Below, piece by piece: positions 1,058 through 62,218 of a stretch of 64,000 bases of DNA. The stretch comes from Candidatus Paceibacter sp. (GTDB lineage: Bacteria > Patescibacteriota > Minisyncoccia > Phycocordibacterales > BOKC01). The position numbers and the translations under genes are program-made. The notes beneath the pieces were generated by a model that saw only the letters and a list, made by a program, of their open reading frames with translations, was not told where the DNA came from and did no database searches. The DNA is taken from assembly GCA_020724885.1 (NCBI GenBank), contig DYGD01000003.1:3103-67102 (forward strand). Reading direction: 5' to 3'. Within the stretch, counting starts at the first letter, position 1; the number at the start of each line of letters is the position of its first letter.

Positions 1058-1627
1058 ATGATCGCCAAATTAAAAGGTCCTATAATCTTTAAAGATGAAA
1101 AAAGTATAATTATTGACGCCCAAGGTGTCGGCTACAGGATATTTGCACCGACTCATTGCCTTTTGAAATTCAAAATTGGAGAAATTGGCGAAATCTGGAC
1201 ACATCTTTCAGTCAAAGAAACTTCTCTGGAAATTTTCGGGTTTATTTCCCAATCGGAGCTTAATTTTTTTGAACTTTTGATTTCAATTTCCGGCATTGGC
1301 CCAAGATCAGCTCTCGGAATCCTAAACATCGCCGAAATAGAATCCCTAAAAAAAGGAATTTCGGAAGGCGACATTACTTATCTGACCAAGGTCTCCGGCA
1401 TTGGCAAAAAAACCGCCGAAAAAATTGTGGTGGAATTAAAAGACAAACTGGGCGCCAAGGACTCGCAAGTCGGCTCAACTAAAGAAGACGTGGAAGTGGT
1501 GGAAGCCCTGAAAGCTCTTGGTTATTCCCAAGAAGAAGCTAGGAGCGCTTTGAAAAGAATATCGGCCGAAACAGAAGGCACTTCGGCAAAAATAAAAGAA
1601 TCATTAAAAATTTTAAGCGGGCAATAA
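1058..1627 (+). CDS. ruvA: Holliday junction DNA helicase RuvA
   Basis: 189 aa; N-terminal MIAKLKG...IIDAQGVGYRI OB-fold start and HhH segment (GIGPRSALGIL...VSGIGKKTAEKIV) characteristic of RuvA. Confidence 0.85.
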   Translation: MIAKLKGPIIFKDEKSIIIDAQGVGYRIFAPTHCLLKFKIGEIGEIWTHLSVKETSLEIFGFISQSELNFFELLISISGIGPRSALGILNIAEIESLKKGISEGDITYLTKVSGIGKKTAEKIVVELKDKLGAKDSQVGSTKEDVEVVEALKALGYSQEEARSALKRISAETEGTSAKIKESLKILSGQ

Positions 1628-1632
1628 ATAAA

Positions 1633-2916
1633 GTGAATTCAATAAAAAAACTGATACCGCCAAAAGTTTTAAATACCGTTCGCCCACCCTATCACTATTT
1701 TCTGGCTTTAATCGGGGCGGTATTTTACCGTTTCCCTTCCAAAAAAATAAAGGTGGTGGCAATAACTGGCACTAAAGGCAAGTCCACAACGACTGAAATT
1801 GTAAACGCTGTTTTGGAAGAAGCCGGTTTCAAAACCGCTCTGGCCAACACTTTAAGATTTAAAATCGGCGAGGAAGAAAAAAGGAATCTTTTCAAAATGA
1901 CTATGCCGGGCAGGTTTTTTCTCCAAAAGTTCTTGGGGCAGGCGGTCGGGAAAAATTGCGATTGGGCGGTGATTGAAATGACGTCCGAAGGTGCGCGACA
2001 ATTCCGGCACAAATTTATTGATTTAGACGTGCTGATCTTTTCCAACCTCTCGCCGGAACACATTGAATCCCACGGCTCTTACGAAAATTACGTCAAAGCT
2101 AAGCTTAAAATTGCCAATTCGCTCGCAAACAGTTCTAAAAAAAGACGAGTTTTAGTTGTAAACAATGACGACAAAGAAGCCGAAAAATTCAAAGCCGTAA
2201 AAAACACCGAAAAAGTTTTGTATTCGCTGAAAGACGCGGTTGATCTTAAATTAGAAGAAGCAAAAAGCGTCTTTGTCTGGCAAAATCAAAGAATTGAAAC
2301 AAAGTTAATCGGCGAGTTTAATGTTTATAACATTTTGAGCGCCCTGACTTTCGCCAAGGCGATTGGCATTGATTTGGAAAAAACCGCGCGAGCGATTCAA
2401 AAAATTGAAAAAATCAGGGGCCGGGTGGAAAAAATCTCGACAGACGGCTTTGATGTTTATGTTGACTACGCCCACACGCCAGATTCTTTGGAGAAATTTT
2501 ATCGGGCTTTTGAAGGCCGGAGAAAAATTTGCGTGCTTGGTAATACCGGCGGTGGACGCGACCAATGGAAACGGCCGGAGATGGGGCGTATTGCCGACAA
2601 ATATTGCGACCAAATAATTTTAACCAACGAAGACCCTTATGACGAAGACCCGAAAAAAATTCTAGATGAGATGATAACTGCTATAAATAAAGAAAAATTA
2701 AAAATAATAATAGACCGCCGAGAAGCGATTCATGAAGCCCTAAACCAAGCCAAAAACAATCTAAGGGTGTCGGAAACCCTTAGATTAAAAACGGTAGTTT
2801 TGATAACGGGTAAAGGCACCGACCCGTTTATAATGGGTCCGCAAGGCACAAAAATCCCGTGGGACGACGCAGAGGTGGTGAGGGAGGAAATTGAAAAACT
2901 AGGGTCTAGGGTATAG
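1633..2916 (+). CDS. Mur ligase family protein (MurE/MurF/MurT-like peptidoglycan ligase)
   Basis: P-loop ITGTKGKSTTTEIV and the DYAHTPDSL motif typical of Mur ligases; 427 aa; subfamily not resolvable by eye. Confidence 0.7.
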   Translation: MNSIKKLIPPKVLNTVRPPYHYFLALIGAVFYRFPSKKIKVVAITGTKGKSTTTEIVNAVLEEAGFKTALANTLRFKIGEEEKRNLFKMTMPGRFFLQKFLGQAVGKNCDWAVIEMTSEGARQFRHKFIDLDVLIFSNLSPEHIESHGSYENYVKAKLKIANSLANSSKKRRVLVVNNDDKEAEKFKAVKNTEKVLYSLKDAVDLKLEEAKSVFVWQNQRIETKLIGEFNVYNILSALTFAKAIGIDLEKTARAIQKIEKIRGRVEKISTDGFDVYVDYAHTPDSLEKFYRAFEGRRKICVLGNTGGGRDQWKRPEMGRIADKYCDQIILTNEDPYDEDPKKILDEMITAINKEKLKIIIDRREAIHEALNQAKNNLRVSETLRLKTVVLITGKGTDPFIMGPQGTKIPWDDAEVVREEIEKLGSRV

Positions 2917-2940
2917 CCAATAGCTAATAGAGTTTGAGAC

Positions 2941-2978
2941 AAAAGCCCTTTTTCGCCTTTAGCGAAAAAGGGCTTTTG
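2941..2978 (+). terminator. Rho-independent terminator after the Mur-ligase gene
   Basis: aaaagccctttttcgcc-ttt-agcgaaaaagggctttt hairpin with flanking T-run. Confidence 0.7.
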
Positions 2979-3007
2979 CTGGATAAGAAAAAACAAAGAA
3001 AATCTTA

Positions 3008-3037
3008 TCAACACTCCCACGATCGTGGGAGTGTTGA
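3008..3037 (-). terminator. perfect 30-bp palindrome (TCAACACTCCCACGA|TCGTGGGAGTGTTGA) acting as terminator of the minus-strand structured RNA
   Basis: 15-bp perfect arms centred on CGATCG; on the minus strand it is followed by a T-rich run (AAGATTTTCTTTGTTTTTTCTT). Confidence 0.6.
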
Positions 3038-3039
3038 TA

Positions 3040-3383
3040 TTCCGGTTCTTAAAATTTAGAAATAGAGAAACCCCCGAGCCAGCTAGCGCCAACCCGGGGG
3101 TGATTTTTCGGACCGCCTGCCCTCTTTCAGGGGCTTTAAGCGAGAACCACGTTCGCGCGCGCGAACATGGCCGGTCCTACCCGATCGAATCAGAGGGAGA
3201 GAAGCAGTTTGGCTTTCCTGCGACGCTCTCCCTGCACCTAGTGCTTGACCACAGCTTGACAAGTGCCCCTGACAAGATATGGTCTTCCTTTTTCGATCGT
3301 GCCCGCGGTGACCTGGGCCGTTCGTCCTCACCTTTGCCATGGGCAAGGATTATTAGGGGAACCAGGACACCTTGAAAGAACAA
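3040..3383 (-). ncRNA. unclassified ~340-nt structured RNA (housekeeping-RNA-sized; tmRNA, 6S or other; class not assignable by eye)
   Basis: Sharply G+C-rich block in an AT-rich genome with no credible ORF (overlapping ORFs are R/P-rich alternate frames). Minus-strand sigma70-like promoter TTGACA-16-TATGAT just upstream (plus coords 3391-3418) and palindromic terminator at 3008-3037. Internal hairpins include CAGGGAGAG...CTCTCCCTG, GTTCGCGCGCGCGAAC and CCCCCGGG...CGGGGG. Confidence 0.5.
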
Positions 3384-3390
3384 CTCAATT

Positions 3391-3418
3391 ATCATAGCAG
3401 ATTCAAATTTTTTGTCAA
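3391..3418 (-). promoter_or_regulatory. sigma70-like promoter for the minus-strand structured RNA
   Basis: On the minus strand: TTGACA (plus 3413-3418) - 16 nt - TATGAT (plus 3391-3396). Confidence 0.5.
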
Positions 3419-3582
3419 GCTTTTGGGGGTGTTTTTTCATTTTTCTTTTTTATCACAGCAAAAATACGGCTAAAAATACAGCTTCTTAGTGGACAAGAAT
3501 TAATTGGCAAAAAATGATATTTGGGAATTTTCCCAGAAAACCTATTGGCTAGTGGCCATACCCTAGTGGCTAATTTATTTAG

Positions 3583-3777
3583 CTAACAACCGCATTTCGT
3601 CTCGGCCTCTCCACACTTTTTGCACTTGAGTTTAATCTTGCCACCATAAGCGCAGTGGCGAAAATGGTCAGGGTCGTGGCGAGAAGAAGTAACGCCACAC
3701 TCCGGACACTTAAAACCCTCAACTTCCCCGCCACAAACACTGCAATGCCCGCTTGAAGCGATGTGATGATGTTGCAT
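3583..3777 (-). CDS. small Cys/His-rich putative zinc-ribbon protein (64 aa)
   Basis: MQHHHIASSGHCSVCGG...CPECG...CKKCGEAETKCGC: four CxxC-type pairs; divergently arranged with the GIY-YIG gene. Confidence 0.5.
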   Translation of the reverse strand: MQHHHIASSGHCSVCGGEVEGFKCPECGVTSSRHDPDHFRHCAYGGKIKLKCKKCGEAETKCGC

Positions 3778-3825
3778 GATAATATTATACTACTTCATCC
3801 TCTCAAAATTTTTGGCTGTGGAATT

Positions 3826-4089
3826 ATGCAATACCTTTACATTCTAAAAAGCACTGTGGATGATGAGTTGTATGTCGGTTGCACAAATAATCTCAAGAAA
3901 AGGATAGAATTGCATAATTCCAAGAAAGTATATTCAACAAGCAGTAGATGTCCATTTGAGCTGATATACTATGAGGCGTATTTGAACAAAAAAGACGCTT
4001 TCGCAAGAGAGCAATTTTATAAGTCCGGCTGGGGAAGAAAGCATATCAAGAAAATTCTTGCTAATTACTTTCACAGCCAAAAAATTTAG
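3826..4089 (+). CDS. GIY-YIG nuclease superfamily protein (YhbQ/UPF0213-like)
   Basis: MQYLYILKSTVDDELYVGCTNNLKKRIELHN...FELIYYEAY...AFAREQFYKSGWGRKHIKK matches the GIY-YIG core; start moved to the internal ATG at 3826 (ORF track starts at 3763). Confidence 0.7.
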   Translation: MQYLYILKSTVDDELYVGCTNNLKKRIELHNSKKVYSTSSRCPFELIYYEAYLNKKDAFAREQFYKSGWGRKHIKKILANYFHSQKI

Positions 4090-4097
4090 GAGGACAA

Positions 4098-6043: not shown

Positions 6044-6116
6044 CCGCCCATAGCTCAATTGGTAGAGCAGTTGCCTTTTAAGCAATTGGTTGTAGGTTCG
6101 AGTCCTACTGGGCGGA
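6044..6116 (+). tRNA. tRNA-Lys (anticodon TTT)
   Basis: Acceptor CCGCCCA/TGGGCGG, D-arm GCTC-AATTGGTA-GAGC, anticodon loop CTTTTAA, T-arm GTAGG-TTCGAGT-CCTAC. Confidence 0.8.
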
Positions 6117-6127
6117 CAATTTAGAAA

Positions 6128-13172: not shown

Positions 13173-13835
13173 TCAGCTTGCGGCAGACACAGTGGCAGAG
13201 GGCCCAAGAACAGAATTACTGCGAGAGAACACCATGAGGCCAGCGTCCCACCTGCCCGGGTACTCAACGGGGTCGGCGCGGACGAGCCAGCCGTCGCCAT
13301 CCCAGAAGACGTAGACCGCGCGAAGGACGCCATTCCGGTCGTGAGCGTAGAAGATGTTGGCACGGCCGTTGTTCAAGAGAACGCCGGCTTCGCCGTTCTT
13401 CTGTAGTGTCATGAGGTGGTAGATATGTCTGAGTGTCGTTCTTGGGTTCTCCTCCCCGCCGAGTTCGGCGATGATGGGTCCGTCCACCTCTTGTCTTGTG
13501 AGCTTGTAGTAGCAGAGAGTGGCATAGCTTTCCGGCTCTTCTGCCATCCCGCCGAAGTAGTTTCGGAAGTTGTATCCGATGAAAGAGATATTGACCGGAG
13601 CTTTTGGACTTGTGTCCACCTTGAAGTGGTCGTCCACGATGAACGGCTCCGTGCCGGCCGGCACATCCACAGTGCCGATGTGTTGGAGGAGTAGTGGCTT
13701 GGAAGCTTCGTTGATCTGAAACTCCACCGTTCCGTTGAGAACACCGATGACGGTTTTCGCGCCTCCAACCTTCTTGACGAAGGCGTTCAGTTGTCCGACG
13801 GTTAGACTGGCAGATGCGAATTCGGGTGAACTCAT
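13173..13835 (-). CDS. hypothetical protein (220 aa) encoded in a G+C-rich island; no recognisable domain
   Basis: Balanced amino-acid composition (MSSPEFASASLTVGQLNAFVKK...VYVFWDGDGWLVRADPVEYPGRWDAG...), GGAG RBS 7 nt before the ATG. The two other long ORFs over the same DNA are Arg-rich alternate frames. Confidence 0.55.
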   Translation of the reverse strand: MSSPEFASASLTVGQLNAFVKKVGGAKTVIGVLNGTVEFQINEASKPLLLQHIGTVDVPAGTEPFIVDDHFKVDTSPKAPVNISFIGYNFRNYFGGMAEEPESYATLCYYKLTRQEVDGPIIAELGGEENPRTTLRHIYHLMTLQKNGEAGVLLNNGRANIFYAHDRNGVLRAVYVFWDGDGWLVRADPVEYPGRWDAGLMVFSRSNSVLGPSATVSAAS

Positions 13836-13901: not shown

Positions 13902-13951
13902 TGGTCATAGCCAGAAAACCTCTATATTTCAAGGTCTTTTGGCTATGACCA
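13902..13951. promoter_or_regulatory. 12-bp perfect inverted repeat TGGTCATAGCCA-N26-TGGCTATGACCA upstream of the island ORF
   Basis: Arms 13902-13913 and 13940-13951; operator-like dyad about 70-115 bp upstream of the island ORF start. Confidence 0.4.
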
Positions 13952-23357: not shown

Positions 23358-23762
23358 ATGCCAAGGTTTACCCTGAATTTTCGAGACGGAACCACCGGGG
23401 TAGTGGATGGGGAGACCATCAGTGATGCCTGCAGAATCTACAACCATCGGCCGGTTCATGTTCTCGCAGATCTTCAAAACTACACCACGGAAGATGGCCA
23501 AGAAGTTCCTGTGGCCGGAATCGCAGACTGTGGTTGCTTCTACCACGCGGAGCGGGGTGAAGCATGCCGCCACGATCTCGAAAAGGCCGGGATCATTACA
23601 GCCAGCGACAATGGCTGTGATACGGACGAGCATGACCGCCGTGATTTTGAGTGCGGTCCGCAACTTCTCGATCCGGCGCTTCGCGGTCTTGATGCTAGCA
23701 AAGTGCCGGCGGAGAGGCCGGAGGAATGCTTTCCGGGCGATGCCCAACGCAGGAATGCGTAA
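23358..23762 (+). CDS. hypothetical acidic Cys-containing protein (135 aa) in a G+C-rich island between rnpA and yidC
   Basis: AGGAGA RBS 6 nt upstream of ATG 23358; followed by a Rho-independent terminator; MPRFTLNFRDGTTGVVDGETISDACRIYNHRPVHVLADLQNYTTEDGQEV...; the competing minus-strand ORF 23283-23825 is Arg-rich at its N-terminus (alternate-frame artefact). Confidence 0.45.
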   Translation: MPRFTLNFRDGTTGVVDGETISDACRIYNHRPVHVLADLQNYTTEDGQEVPVAGIADCGCFYHAERGEACRHDLEKAGIITASDNGCDTDEHDRRDFECGPQLLDPALRGLDASKVPAERPEECFPGDAQRRNA

Positions 23763-46027: not shown

Positions 46028-46462
46028 TCACTCGTCGCCGGATTCGGATTCAGCGACGAGTGTCCGAAGGCGCTGAAGATGATTGTCCAGCGCTCGCACC
46101 CATTCCTCGCTCGGCAACTCGCCGTCGCCTCGGGGAATTATTTCCCACTGGTGCCCTCTGCTCTGAACGGGTAGGATTACCCTTACCGCCAAAGTTCGGG
46201 GGTTGAGATGAAAGACCTCCACCTCATCTCCACTGAACTGGAAGAAGAAGTAGATCGGGCGATCGGGGAGAGCCGTGTTCCGGAGCAGATCTCCGGTCTG
46301 AATCTCGGCCCACTGCTCGCCGTGCTCCTCCACGATCTTCTGCCTGACCTCATCCGGAGTGGGGGCAGGATCCTTGAACATTGTCGTGGCAAGCAAGCCG
46401 AGGATTGTCACGATCAGGACAAGAACCACCAATTCGGGCAGGGTGAATCCGCGCTTCATCAC
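46028..46462 (-). CDS. type IV pilin / pseudopilin with class III (prepilin) signal peptide, encoded in a G+C-rich island
   Basis: MMKRG|FTLPELVVLVLIVTILGLLATT: textbook prepilin-peptidase site with Glu+5 and hydrophobic helix; 144 aa; local G+C visibly far above flanks. Confidence 0.65.
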   Translation of the reverse strand: MMKRGFTLPELVVLVLIVTILGLLATTMFKDPAPTPDEVRQKIVEEHGEQWAEIQTGDLLRNTALPDRPIYFFFQFSGDEVEVFHLNPRTLAVRVILPVQSRGHQWEIIPRGDGELPSEEWVRALDNHLQRLRTLVAESESGDE

Positions 46463-59813: not shown

Positions 59814-59992
59814 GTCAGCTTCGTCGGATTTTTTACTTCGCTCTGCTCGCAAAAAATCTCGACTACCCGACCCGCGCTTGGCGGCTCGCCGCTCGCAATG
59901 CTCGCGTCGGCTTCGCGCCGCCTCGGTTCAATTCTCCCTTTCCCTATAAAAATATACTCCGTAAATAATTCTTATTCACTCCGTTATTTTTT

Positions 59993-60063
59993 TGCGGGAT
60001 GGGAGAATCGAACTCCCAACCTCAGTTTGGAAAACTGATATTTTACCATTAAACTAATCCCGC
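59993..60063 (-). tRNA. tRNA-Gly (anticodon TCC)
   Basis: Acceptor GCGGGAT/ATCCCGC, anticodon stem TCAGT/ACTGA loop TTTCCAA, T-arm GGGAG-TTCGATT-CTCCC. Confidence 0.75.
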
Positions 60064-60103
60064 AACTCTTCATTGGAAGAGTTTACCAGTTTACAAGAAA
60101 TTT

Positions 60104-60133
60104 AAAAGCCCCGCGCGCAAGCGCGGGGCTTTT
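60104..60133. terminator. GC-rich hairpin AAAAGCCCCGCGCGC-aa-GCGCGGGGCTTTT
   Basis: Perfect stem with flanking A-run and T-run; 40 bp from the tRNA-Gly 5' end. Confidence 0.55.
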
Positions 60134-60353
60134 AAACTACATAGCAGTTTCTTCTTCGGTAGGGGTTTCAGGAGTAGGAGTGGTTTGCTCATCTCCTGTC
60201 GGAGTTGTTTGATCGTCCATTGTGATTTTCAGATTAACCCTGAGAAACCTGTTTCCTAAAAAAAATTAAGAAACAGACAAAGCAGAGCGCGCTGATAATT
60301 AAATCCGGCCAATTAAGCCAGATTTAAATCATTATACACTATTTTTTAAAAAG

Positions 60354-60659
60354 TCAAAGCTTTTTGGAAGAAATGTCTATAACTTTTTGGAAATCGTCTT
60401 TATCGCTCACCCCATTTCTTTTTTTAAATCGGCAGATTTCGCATTCGTGGACTAAAAAATATTTGCCGCTTTTTTTAAAGACAGATACTGGTCTCATCAT
60501 CCCACCGCACTCGGCTCTCCTATCTCCGGGGTTTATATCAACATGCCGGCTCCAAAGGCATTTTGGGCAATGATTGGTGTAGCCGTTTCCGCTTACACTA
60601 TGTCCACATTTTTTACAAACAAAATCCTCCTTATTTTTTTGAAATTTTCTCGCCCCCAT
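60354..60659 (-). CDS. RNHCP-domain zinc-ribbon protein (101 aa)
   Basis: From ATG 60659: FVCKKCGHSVSGNGYTNHCPKCLWSRH...ECGGMMRP...HECEICRF with the (R/T)NHCP motif and Cys pairs. Confidence 0.55.
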   Translation of the reverse strand: MGARKFQKNKEDFVCKKCGHSVSGNGYTNHCPKCLWSRHVDINPGDRRAECGGMMRPVSVFKKSGKYFLVHECEICRFKKRNGVSDKDDFQKVIDISSKKL

Positions 60660-60703
60660 ATTTGGCAAAAATATGCTAACATAGCAAGGCCTTGGAGAAA
60701 AAG

Positions 60704-60763
60704 CGGGGCGTAGTATATCGGCAGTATACATGGTTTGGGACCATGAGGTCCGAGCACGCCCCC
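60704..60763 (+). pseudogene. tRNA-Pro-like pseudo-copy (acceptor 5' strand, D-arm and anticodon arm intact; T-loop deleted)
   Basis: CGGGGCG-TA-GTAT-ATCGGCA-GTAT-A-CATGG-TTTGGGA-CCATG-AGGT-CCGAG then CACGCCCCC; a 45-nt block nearly identical to the true tRNA-Pro 98 bp downstream. Confidence 0.5.
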
Positions 60764-60798
60764 ACACCAATATTTGAAATAAAGTAAGTATGTTATTA

Positions 60799-60869
60799 CG
60801 GGATGTAGTATAGTGGTAGTATACATGGTTTGGGACCATGAGGTCCGAGTTCGATTCTCGGCATCCCGA
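60799..60869 (+). tRNA. tRNA-Pro (anticodon TGG)
   Basis: Acceptor CGGGATG/CATCCCG, anticodon stem CATGG/CCATG loop TTTGGGA (G37), T-arm CCGAG-TTCGATT-CTCGG. Confidence 0.75.
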
Positions 60870-60917
60870 AAAAATATATTGGTGTGAGATAAAATTCTCG
60901 GCGCTCTAATAGCCAAA

Positions 60918-61277
60918 TCACTCCGGCACCACATCTTCTATAATCTTAATTCTTGCTGTGCCGGATTCCGGATTTAACAAAATTGGTATGACCAAAAAAC
61001 GCCAATTTTTCCCTTCCAGGTTTTTTCTCAAGGTGTAAATTTGAATGGCGCGGGAGATTCTTTTTAACTTATAATGGTCTACCCTTTCTTCTGGCCGATT
61101 TTCTTTATCTACTTTGTCTAAACTGGTTTTAACTTCAACAAAATAAAATTCTTTGTCTTTTATGGCAATAATGTCCAACTCACCTACTTTCTTACTGAAA
61201 TTCCTTTCTACAATTTTAAACCCCCTTTTTACCAGATAAGCGGAGGCAATTTCTTCGCCCTTTTTTCCTATATTCAT
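60918..61277 (-). CDS. yraN: YraN/UPF0102-family endonuclease
   Basis: GEEIASAYLVKRGFKIVERNFSKKVGELDIIAIKDKEFYFVEVKTS matches the YraN core. Confidence 0.7.
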   Translation of the reverse strand: MNIGKKGEEIASAYLVKRGFKIVERNFSKKVGELDIIAIKDKEFYFVEVKTSLDKVDKENRPEERVDHYKLKRISRAIQIYTLRKNLEGKNWRFLVIPILLNPESGTARIKIIEDVVPE

Positions 61278-61368
61278 TATCTTTAAATTTCTAAAGAACC
61301 TTCGCCCTAAAGGTCAGTTTAGGGACTTTTTTAGGTAATTTGTCCTTTTAATTCACATTTCCACAGAG

Positions 61369-61390
61369 TTATCCACAGATTTGTGGATAT
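61369..61390. promoter_or_regulatory. inverted pair of DnaA boxes: TTATCCACA (perfect) - GATT - TGTGGATAT (8/9)
   Basis: TTATCCACAgattTGTGGATAT, 92 bp upstream of the yraN start, in an AT-rich spacer that also holds a stem-loop + T6 (61305-61332). Confidence 0.5.
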
Positions 61391-61523
61391 TTGTTATCAA
61401 AAAAGCGTTGAAAATCTGCCTTAAATTATGGCTTTTTAGTCAAAGTTTATTCAATTTTTCCGATCTTCGTGTTGCTATCAAAGTTCTTTAGGACACTTTA
61501 TGCGGGCACCCACACCTTTCATG

Positions 61524-61811
61524 TTACTGCAGACTTTCAGAAATTCTTCTTTTAAGTCGGGCGAACGCTTTACCATCTTTTGTAAGAGACACTTCCCGTT
61601 TAGGAGCGTCAGATTCACTATGAAATGCTTCATAGTAGCGCAGTAAAAACGGTTTCCGCGGTTTTGTAGATGGCACTTTTCCCTCGTTGTGTTCTGAAGG
61701 TCTGCGTTTCAAATCATCAGTAGAGTCGATATATAAATTTCCATCCTTCTTACTTTTCAAAAAAAGCGATAATACATACTTATTGTTACCTATGATTTGA
61801 AACAATAACAT
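61524..61811 (-). CDS. GIY-YIG nuclease superfamily protein (second copy)
   Basis: KYVLSL...GNLYIDSTDDLKRRPSEHNEGK...PFLLRYYEAFHSESDAPKRE matches the GIY-YIG core; directly abuts tRNA-Gly(GCC). Confidence 0.6.
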   Translation of the reverse strand: MLLFQIIGNNKYVLSLFLKSKKDGNLYIDSTDDLKRRPSEHNEGKVPSTKPRKPFLLRYYEAFHSESDAPKREVSLTKDGKAFARLKRRISESLQ

Positions 61812-61823
61812 GAAAGGTGAGGG

Positions 61824-61894
61824 TGCGGGCAGGGAGAATCGAACTCCCGTCTGATCCTTGGCAAGGATCTGTCATGCCACTAAACTATGCCCGC
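61824..61894 (-). tRNA. tRNA-Gly (anticodon GCC)
   Basis: Acceptor GCGGGCA/TGCCCGC, anticodon stem GATCC/GGATC loop TTGCCAA, T-arm GGGAG-TTCGATT-CTCCC. Confidence 0.75.
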
Positions 61895-61983
61895 GATTTA
61901 ATTGACCAGCAAAATCCTACAATTCACAACTCAAGAATATCAGAATCAAAATTAATTTCAATTTTCGGCTGTTGGTTTATTTG

Positions 61984-62056
61984 CGTCCCTGAGAGGATTT
62001 GAACCCCTGGCCTCTTCCTCCGGAGGGAAGCGCTCTATCCGCTGAGCTACAGGGAC
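61984..62056 (-). tRNA. tRNA-Arg (anticodon CCG)
   Basis: Acceptor GTCCCTG/CAGGGAC, D-arm GCTC-AGCGGATA-GAGC, anticodon loop CTCCGGA, T-arm AGGGG-TTCAAAT-CCTCT. Confidence 0.75.
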
Positions 62057-62145
62057 AAAATTTTAATATCGGGGTCTGTTAAATCCCGACGCTTCAGTCG
62101 GGACCTCGACCTCCGGCACACCCTGTGGTCGGAGCTCCAACGATA

Positions 62146-62218
62146 TACCCCCGGAAGGAATCGAACCCTCATCTGCGGTTCCGAAGACCGCTGCTTTTAT
62201 CCTTTAAGCTACGGGGGC
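62146..62218 (-). tRNA. tRNA-Arg (anticodon TCG)
   Basis: Acceptor GCCCCCG/CGGGGGT (G1-U72), D-arm GCTT/AAGC, anticodon stem GCGGT/ACCGC loop CTTCGGA, T-arm GAGGG-TTCGATT-CCTTC. Confidence 0.65.

Follow-up and report, generated by a model that had tools for sequence, protein, structure and literature searches.

The 64,000-nt stretch of DNA examined here (contig DYGD01000003.1 of the Candidatus Paceibacter sp. assembly GCA_020724885.1, positions 3,103-67,102 of the forward strand; hereafter, the window) contains, between two convergent genes that encode a MurE-like ligase and a small Zn-ribbon protein, a block of G+C-rich sequence which an earlier examination of the nucleotide sequence, made without database searches (the sequence-only reading), had proposed to correspond to an unclassified structured RNA equipped with its own promoter and terminator. 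The analyses described below point to a small transcription unit that would specify a stable RNA of approximately 320 nt, and that is located in an island whose content differs between closely related strains. The same sequence (100% identical) is also present on the Joint Genome Institute (JGI)/GEM contig Ga0246236_1000504, and the closest relatives of the MurE-like protein are encoded by metagenome-assembled genomes of Yonathbacteria, Paceibacterota and other Patescibacteria.

The block and its putative transcription unit

That the block stands out from an intergenic region of lower G+C content was borne out by the composition of 200-nt intervals, which is 0.54, 0.555 and 0.525 across positions 3001-3400 (0.54-0.58 for the block), as against 0.335-0.345 in the flanking intervals (3401-3600 and 2601-2800) and 0.426 for the window as a whole; indeed, every sequence feature named in the sequence-only reading was found where that reading had placed it. 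The proposed minus-strand promoter (TTGACA-16-TATGAT) is present at 3418..3391, with 11 of 12 matches in addition to the TG of an extended -10 element, and is the foremost of six promoter-like sites within positions 2700-3900, a region for which shuffled sequences give 1.8; the transcription start predicted from it lies at approximately 3384. At the opposite end of the block (Table 1), a first hairpin together with TTTCTCTATTT occupies 3101..3070 (terminator 1), and is followed, across a gap of approximately 30 nt, by the palindrome that had been described as a 30-bp palindromic terminator. The palindrome is perfect, with a T-rich run after it, as claimed, but its length is 34 nt rather than 30, and it might represent either a second terminator or a site that acts at the level of DNA.

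Table 1. Positions of features within the window and of comparable units at related loci (locus designations beginning with L)
Feature	Position	Strand	Remarks
RuvA gene	1058-1627		
murE-like gene (MurE-type Mur ligase)	1633-2916	+	convergent with Zn-ribbon gene
Left arm of island-bounding inverted repeat (ACTAGGGTCTAGGGTATAGCCAATAG...)	2896..2944		overlaps last murE codons and stop
Bidirectional terminator hairpin of murE-like gene	2940..2978	both	17-bp perfect stem, 5-nt loop; third barrier to a minus-strand transcript
Perfect palindrome, 17+17 nt (3006-3039)	2985..3039	-	centre CGATCG, then U-rich run
Terminator 1	3059..3101	-	14-bp G+C-rich hairpin with four G-U pairs, then UUUCUCUAUUU
Predicted RNA body, ~320 nt	3060..3384	-	from start to U-tract after terminator 1; G+C 0.57
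Domain 2	3109..3305	-	multi-branch, closed by CGGGC/GUCCG; most helices at probability 0.9-1.0
Domain 2, GAAA-loop hairpin	3114-3142	-	
Domain 2, 12-bp hairpin	3145-3172	-	GGCCAUGUUCGC/GCGAACGUGGUU
Domain 2, three-way junction	3182-3299	-	closed by CGAUCGAA/UUCGAUCG
Domain 1	3307..3371	-	stems GGUG/CACC and CCUGG/CCAGG around an internal loop, plus apical hairpin
Promoter-like site inside RNA body	3256..3283	+	TTGACA-16-TATGGT; holds 10-nt inverted copy of the -35 region of the RNA promoter
Promoter, sigma-70-type	3391..3418	-	TTGACA-16-TATGAT, TGn extended -10, A-rich stretch upstream; 11/12 matches
87-aa open reading frame called by JGI annotation over the RNA	3177..3440 (L039 5545-5808)	-	begins upstream of the promoter, without Shine-Dalgarno sequence
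Right arm of island-bounding inverted repeat	3528..3576		just past Zn-ribbon stop codon
Zn-ribbon protein gene, 64 aa	3777-3583	-	
GIY-YIG nuclease gene, 108 aa	3763-4089	+	
RNA-A, 140 nt	L034 6060-6236	-	G+C-rich, with terminator; in L034 and L035
RNA-B, ~215 nt	L034 6360-6590; L033 6192-6439; L035 3605-3874; L041 2175-2433	-	
G+C-rich block of ~200 nt in L029	L029 6360-6575	-	directly after murE, on the opposite strand; promoter-like site and terminator-like hairpin; z = -5.0

The predicted RNA folds more stably in the direction of its promoter than in the opposite direction, with a minimum free energy of -145.6 kcal/mol for the minus strand and -117.9 kcal/mol for the plus strand; the corresponding z-scores are -5.3 and -2.0 for the body (3060..3384), and -8.2 and -5.9 for the complete unit. 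Because terminator hairpins inflate such scores, the core of the RNA (3105-3384) was refolded alone with those hairpins excluded, and yielded z-scores of -4.17 (minus strand) and -2.32 (plus strand), while seven control segments of 281 nt from the window (five of them taken from G+C-rich open reading frames, or ORFs) ranged from -0.10 to -1.93. The minus-strand fold contains 13 G-U pairs and the plus-strand fold contains six, and the asymmetry in z, in energy and in G-U pairing is in keeping with a structure formed by RNA in the direction of the promoter.

The predicted layout corresponds to a 65-nt stem-loop domain followed by a 200-nt multi-branch domain. Within the first of these, the outer stems display pair probabilities of 0.98-1.0, and the apical helix (0.67) can be drawn either as UCCUUGCC/GGUGAGGA or in an alternative form, CCUUGCC-CAU-GGCAAAGG. 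The helices that had been picked out by eye in the sequence-only reading, which comprise AGGGAGAG/CUCUCCCU surrounding GCAG-GAAAGCCAAA-CUGC, the GUUCGCGCGCGCGAAC hairpin, and the CCCCCGGG...CGGGGG hairpin that is in fact terminator 1, all recur in the minimum free energy structure with pair probabilities of 0.95-1.0.

The earlier claim that the block contains no credible ORF also stands: its three-nucleotide periodicity is 1.45, as compared to 3.7-5.5 in the G+C-rich genes of the window, and its G+C content is flat across codon phases (0.60/0.56/0.54). Reading frames of 87-116 aa are present in three frames, and searches of 1.84 and 5.8 billion proteins with the 87-aa frame and the plus-strand 116-aa frame recovered only the identical copy. 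Considered together, a strong promoter with terminators, a fold that is unusually stable and specific to one strand, and the lack of a coding signal are consistent with a genuine small transcription unit with a stable RNA product; the block displays, as a prediction from its sequence, a promoter, a non-coding body and an intrinsic terminator that are all arranged on one strand.

Variable cargo at the same site in relatives

Searches with nhmmer and blastn of 32 GTDB loci that are syntenic by virtue of a MurE-like protein (at most 63% identity) revealed no homologue of the RNA, and Rfam models identified only tRNAs in those loci. Sixteen further loci, drawn from closer relatives that were reached through protein-database look-ups (identities given below are those of MurE), likewise contained no homologue of the RNA apart from the identical JGI/GEM contig; the only part of the unit to recur in relatives (L033-L035) is its 27-nt promoter, which displays 92-93% identity with the promoter of RNA-A, a unit described below. 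The block found no match by blastn in phage and plasmid collections, scans of IMG/VR with five patterns returned nothing or chance matches, and a metagenome scan that used the conserved promoter as its pattern returned one chance match in an unrelated coding region. A single-sequence covariance model of the three-way junction (R1), run over 444 kb, recovered only itself. Across GTDB loci, closer relatives, phage and plasmid sequences, IMG/VR, metagenome patterns and protein space, the RNA is therefore a singleton. As a separate matter, the possibility that the block is a pseudogene of a cargo protein was rejected, as tblastn searches of the region with the 206-, 211- and 208-aa cargo proteins of the relatives gave nothing.

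The site itself, by comparison, proved to be highly variable. It is empty in L042 (66% identity) and L047 (68%), where only 45-55 nt separate the stop codons of murE and of the Zn-ribbon gene, and gene order differs in L048 and L029 (63%). In relatives at 72-77% identity the site is filled with differing cargo that consists of small RNA-like units and orphan G+C-rich ORFs. The minus-strand cargo of L034 and L035 comprises RNA-B (215 nt), RNA-A (140 nt) and a G+C-rich orphan ORF of 206 aa, which possesses its own promoter-like site and, in L034, its own terminator; L041 carries a different orphan ORF of 211 aa together with RNA-B, and L036 an orphan ORF of 208 aa together with a helix-turn-helix fragment resembling those of insertion sequences. 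Between L034 and L041, identity is 100% in ruvA, 99.4% in the Zn-ribbon gene and 90% in murE; these are very close strains with differing cargo, which indicates that cargo is turned over within the species, and the divergence of murE between nearly identical neighbours suggests recombination beside a hot spot. Scans of neighbouring and cargo proteins for defence systems and Pfam domains revealed nothing informative.

RNA-A would be transcribed from nearly base-for-base the same promoter as the RNA of the window, is found in the same island and on the same strand, and likewise ends in a hairpin terminator. In L033 (6053-6091, minus strand), which is otherwise nearly identical to L034, a clean indel of 160 nt located between GAATCTGCT and TCCTTGATGAG removes RNA-A and its -10 box. 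RNA-B, which is absent from the window, follows a TTGACA-17-TATAAT promoter that is intact in L033 and L041 and mutated in its -35 box in L034; its closing stem pairs GGACGUG with CACAUGUCC and is succeeded by a strong terminator. Neither RNA-A nor RNA-B matches Rfam, and their fold scores (z = -2.2 and -4.4, respectively) are weaker than that of the unit in the window. These two units (140 nt at L034 6060-6206 and 215 nt at L034 6360-6566) resemble the 320-nt RNA in their sigma-70-type promoters and hairpin terminators, but their bodies show no significant similarity to it: local alignments of the body with RNA-A, RNA-B and the comparable block of L029 gave z = 1.15, -0.06 and 0.23, and were no better than those of shuffled sequences. 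The L029 block itself has no Rfam match and no similarity to the other loci. Two further observations concern RNA-B. In L041 and L034, direct repeats, CA(A/C)GGTTAAACCTCCCAGAGA, lie on either side of it, and the loop of its terminator is inverted between these near-identical strains (...CCACGATCGAGAAGAATGTGG... at approximately 6362-6392 of L034, as against ...CTACGCTCTCCTCGATCGTGG... at approximately 2180-2212 of L041), which suggests that the loop was flipped through the inverted repeats of the hairpin.

The comparative evidence at this hypervariable island argues that the RNA is accessory cargo and performs no housekeeping role. The reading preferred here, to which a probability of about one half is assigned, is that the block specifies a lineage-specific accessory structured RNA of approximately 320 nt that acts in trans, probably by binding protein or as a scaffold in connection with the island. 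The promoter, body, fold and terminators are legible in the sequence itself, and transcription, termination at the first hairpin and function are presumed from them: the RNA would be made constitutively and end at terminator 1, would act in trans by means of its stable fold, most likely binding protein or serving as a scaffold as an accessory RNA of an island that is mobile or rapidly turned over, and would have arrived or been reshaped recently in this lineage. The last of these steps is suggested by the presence at the same site, in sibling strains, of other RNA-like units and orphan ORFs, one of those strains employing the same promoter for a different RNA of 140 nt. A locally raised G+C content in an intergenic region of a lower-G+C genome has been used in published screens as a signal for structured RNAs (PMC8632094), and the orphan, island-borne bacterial RNAs to which such screens lead (the unnamed candidates of PMC8632094, for example) resemble the present one in their long intergenic regions of raised local G+C content within lower-G+C genomes, their own promoters and terminators, their strong folds and their non-coding character. 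The named candidates of those screens differ from it in being founded upon several homologues and covariation, whereas the RNA of the window has no homologue and hence does not qualify as a motif class. Should it prove to be real and functional, a bacterial radiation in which the repertoire of non-coding RNA is almost unexplored would gain a large structured RNA, and a strain-variable locus would be indicated to exchange RNA genes as well as proteins; the RNA is currently a prediction from a single genome, and the locus, which varies between strains and repeatedly holds RNA-like units bounded by promoters and terminators along with orphan G+C-rich genes, is the more interesting lead.

Several points weigh against that reading. 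The RNA is represented by one distinct sequence, the sole additional copy of which is 100% identical, and so offers neither the conservation nor the covariation on which the case for a functional RNA structure normally rests; none of the relatives examined possesses it; and no partner protein or target is evident. Lack of conservation or covariation in relatives, when joined by signs of coding, had been named in the sequence-only reading as grounds for abandoning its proposal, and although conservation is indeed lacking, so is any sign of coding. A G+C-rich fragment of foreign origin can fold well by virtue of its composition alone, although the dinucleotide-shuffle controls speak otherwise. 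Finally, three terminators are arranged in series, the first two of them 30 nt apart, and the unit could as a result be the remnant of a deletion.

That final point leads to the main rival explanation, possible but doubtful, that the block is a transcribed relic without present function, corresponding to the leftover front end of a cassette (a promoter, a small-RNA or leader module, and terminators) from which the protein-coding part has been deleted. The promoter that the two loci have in common precedes, in L034, a 140-nt RNA and its terminator, after which come the separately promoted 206-aa ORF and a terminator of its own; the 30-nt gap between terminator 1 and the palindrome is situated exactly where such an ORF would lie, and by analogy with L034 the palindrome may be the terminator that remained when the ORF was lost. 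Indels of the size of a module do occur at this site, as illustrated by L033, from which the 160-nt RNA-A unit of L034 is missing, and the lack of conservation of the RNA in all relatives examined would also be accounted for. The promoter, however, is still close to consensus, and the fold is unusually stable and strand-specific where a relic would be expected to have drifted; moreover, the body bears no resemblance to RNA-A beyond the promoter (z = 1.15), nor to the cargo proteins, which argues that it is not simply the arrangement of L034 minus its ORF.

Inverted repeats around the island

Imperfect inverted repeats with arms of 49 nt that are 73% complementary enclose the entire 680-bp insert of the window; a 26-nt repeat noted together with their left arm is 77% complementary. 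The 49-nt repeats are rich in TAGGG (for example, CTAGGGTCTAGGGTATAGCCAATAG); similar TAGGG-rich sequence borders the islands of L033, L034 and L041, and is absent from the empty site of L047, with a weak TTAGG-like trace in that of L042. In L041, one such run, GGGTATAGGGTCTAGGGTATAGGGTTTAGGGG, also fits the pattern of a G-quadruplex.

Such an arrangement is reminiscent of a non-autonomous mobile DNA element, and in particular of miniature inverted-repeat and palindrome-associated transposable elements (MITEs, and PATEs of the IS200/IS605 family), in which hairpins would be recognised as DNA by a transposase or recombinase and the RNA fold would be a by-product. The similarities comprise a small insert within imperfect inverted repeats (here 49 nt around 680 bp), at a position left unoccupied in relatives (L042 and L047), and an abundance of palindromes: the 34-nt palindrome is perfect, as DNA sites more commonly are than terminators, and CGATCG occurs three times within approximately 280 bp, as compared to 13 times in the 64-kb window. 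This explanation nevertheless appears unlikely. In contrast to such elements, no second copy of the insert was found in the 64-kb window or in the 48 loci, and no target-site duplication was recognised; the repeats enclose the island as a whole even in relatives whose cargo is quite different, which argues that they do not belong to this RNA in particular; and the folding advantage is specific to one strand at the level of RNA, and depends upon G-U pairs that are impossible in DNA or in the other strand.

A more far-reaching, and distinctly speculative, reading regards the RNA as the first member to be seen of a hitherto undescribed class of accessory RNAs, large and structured, in bacteria of the Candidate Phyla Radiation (CPR), and the murE/Zn-ribbon site as a hot spot of cassette exchange that is bounded by the TAGGG-rich repeats. 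Under that proposal, which at present appears improbable, the RNA of the window, RNA-A and RNA-B (with a comparable unit beside murE in L029) would be swapped between strains along with the orphan G+C-rich ORFs, and the site could be a locus of conflict or defence in which the RNAs serve as partners (guides, scaffolds or antitoxins).

Known RNA families, reading frames and neighbouring genes

Models from Rfam 15 were applied to the whole window at the gathering score, and to positions 2850-3600 (751 nt) and 3050-3395 (346 nt) at E<=10. The block was assigned to no described family in this comparison, which the sequence-only reading had proposed as a check: no model reached the gathering score within it, and the models for transfer-messenger RNA (tmRNA), RNase P RNA, signal recognition particle (SRP) RNA, 6S RNA and riboswitches were absent at E<=10 from both the 751-nt and the 346-nt stretch. 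The listings at that threshold consist of chance matches to terminator hairpins and of a single match (12 bits, E = 6) to cow-rumen-1, in which CGGGCACGAUCGAAAAAGG (3287-3311, minus strand) is similar to the 3' tail, unpaired, of the family consensus in Rfam; the resemblance is probably due to chance. The sequence CACGATCG recurs in the 34-nt palindrome and in the terminator of RNA-B in L034.

The suggestion that the size of the block points to tmRNA or another housekeeping RNA is contradicted by its absence from every relative examined, and of the accompanying suggestion that it is a divergent or novel RNA, what survives is an unclassified and probably real RNA, and not one of the tmRNA or RNase P type. 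A tmRNA is characterised by a tRNA-like domain (with paired ends, a T-arm and a CCA-proximal acceptor) and by an internal frame for the tag peptide. The block is similar to members of that family (Rfam clan CL00001) in its size range and in possessing its own promoter and terminator, but both the tRNA-like acceptor and T-arm and the tag reading frame are missing from it; ARAGORN identified seven tRNAs and no tmRNA in the whole window, and the models of the tmRNA clan were silent on the block at E<=10. The hallmark of SRP RNA is the domain IV hairpin, with its GNAR loop and conserved symmetric and asymmetric loops; no SRP model matched, and the GCAG-GAAAGCCAAA-CUGC hairpin of the block has a 10-nt loop that lacks the GGAA...AGCA motifs. 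A typical 6S RNA is a single long, irregular hairpin of approximately 150-200 nt with a large central bubble; no 6S model matched (an observation that is weak by itself, as 6S sequences diverge strongly), and the predicted fold is a two-domain, multi-branch structure of 320 nt. With respect to riboswitches and other cis-acting leaders, no family matched, and no minus-strand ORF lies downstream, what comes next on that strand, after the two hairpins, being the convergent murE gene, entered from its 3' end.

RNase P RNA of bacteria is distinguished by a P4 helix that is formed from CR-I (GAGGAAAGUCC...) and CR-V (ACAGAA..GGCUUA), and by a P1 helix that pairs the two ends of the molecule. The block is comparable to it in length (approximately 320-340 nt), in its multi-domain, G+C-rich fold, and in its origin from a CPR host in which RNase P RNA can be difficult to detect; it differs in lacking the P4 sequences, long-range pairing of the 5' and 3' ends, any match to a model, and conservation in relatives. 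No sequence resembling CR-V was found in it, the ends of the RNA are unpaired in the predicted fold with no P1-like pairing, and RF00010 and RF00011 were absent at E<=10 from both stretches, in lists that extended to matches of 8-15 bits. In 10 of 35 complete CPR genomes, RNase P RNA has been detectable only at sub-threshold scores of RF00010 (Lui et al. 2021, PMC8172020), and the diverged genes in question were still recovered by that model at low scores (PMC8172020). That precedent, together with a length of 320-340 nt that would suit RNase P RNA or tmRNA, and with GAGGACGAACGGCCC and CAGGAAAGCC, which in the author's reading briefly resemble the CR-I motif GAGGAAAGUCCGGGC, might be cited in favour of a housekeeping RNA (RNase P RNA, tmRNA, 6S RNA or SRP RNA) so diverged that the standard models miss it. 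The chances of such an RNA are nonetheless very slim: GAGGACGAACGGCCC and CAGGAAAGCC have no ACAGAA...GGCUUA partner strand with which to form P4; none of the four families appears at E<=10 in a listing for the 346-nt stretch that does include matches of 12 bits; ARAGORN was negative for tmRNA, and tRNA-like ends are wanting; and the RNA is missing both from the syntenic site and from the rest of the island in relatives and lies in a strain-variable insert, neither of which would be expected of a housekeeping RNA. The block is, accordingly, not the RNase P RNA or the tmRNA of the organism.

That the block is instead a small protein-coding gene, such as the 87-aa frame called by the JGI gene caller at 3177-3440 or a basic frame of 85 aa at 3083-3346, is hardly credible in spite of that call and of the 87-116-aa frames in three registers, given that the called frame starts upstream of the promoter without a Shine-Dalgarno sequence and has no match in Pfam, that neither it nor the 116-aa frame has a homologue in the protein sets searched, and that periodicity and phase-dependent G+C content are lacking in contrast to the G+C-rich genes of the window; it is probable that the gene annotated by JGI on the public contig is spurious.

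Several G+C-rich genes (0.58-0.63, encoding 130-220 aa) are located at 13173-13835 (minus strand), approximately 23358-23762 (plus strand) and 46030-46460 (minus strand) of a genome with 43% G+C, and their existence means that raised G+C content by itself is no marker of RNA genes here. Each of them has its own promoter-like site of the TTGAC(A/T) type and, as judged by eye, a terminator-like hairpin, and the product of one is prepilin-like according to its N-terminal sequence; a viral origin of the G+C-rich orphan genes was considered and found to be unsupported. A leader hairpin, GGTCATAGCCAAAAGACCTTGAAATATAGAGGTTTTCTGGCTATGACC, is conserved between the window (13903-13950, minus strand) and L041 (approximately 3244-3289, minus strand), and in each case is positioned between a strong promoter and an orphan G+C-rich ORF (220 aa in the window and 211 aa in L041) that is unrelated to its counterpart; it may be a shared regulatory element or an element at a cassette junction.

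Additional neighbours encoded in the window include Fpg, a SpoU methylase, DoxX, a protein with the C-terminal domain of the DNA polymerase III delta subunit, and PolA. The GIY-YIG nuclease gene is absent from the corresponding position in all relatives (by tblastn), and contains near its two ends, inside the listed ORF, inverted repeats of 29 nt (3798-3826 and 4066-4094) that are 83% complementary; it has the appearance of an independent selfish insertion that lies between fpg and the gene for the Zn-ribbon protein, and a paralogue of 42% identity is encoded at 61539-61760. A cluster of five tRNA genes (Gly-TCC, Pro-TGG, Gly-GCC, Arg-CCG and Arg-TCG) spans positions 59992-62218, and two more are found at 291-363 and 6044-6117.

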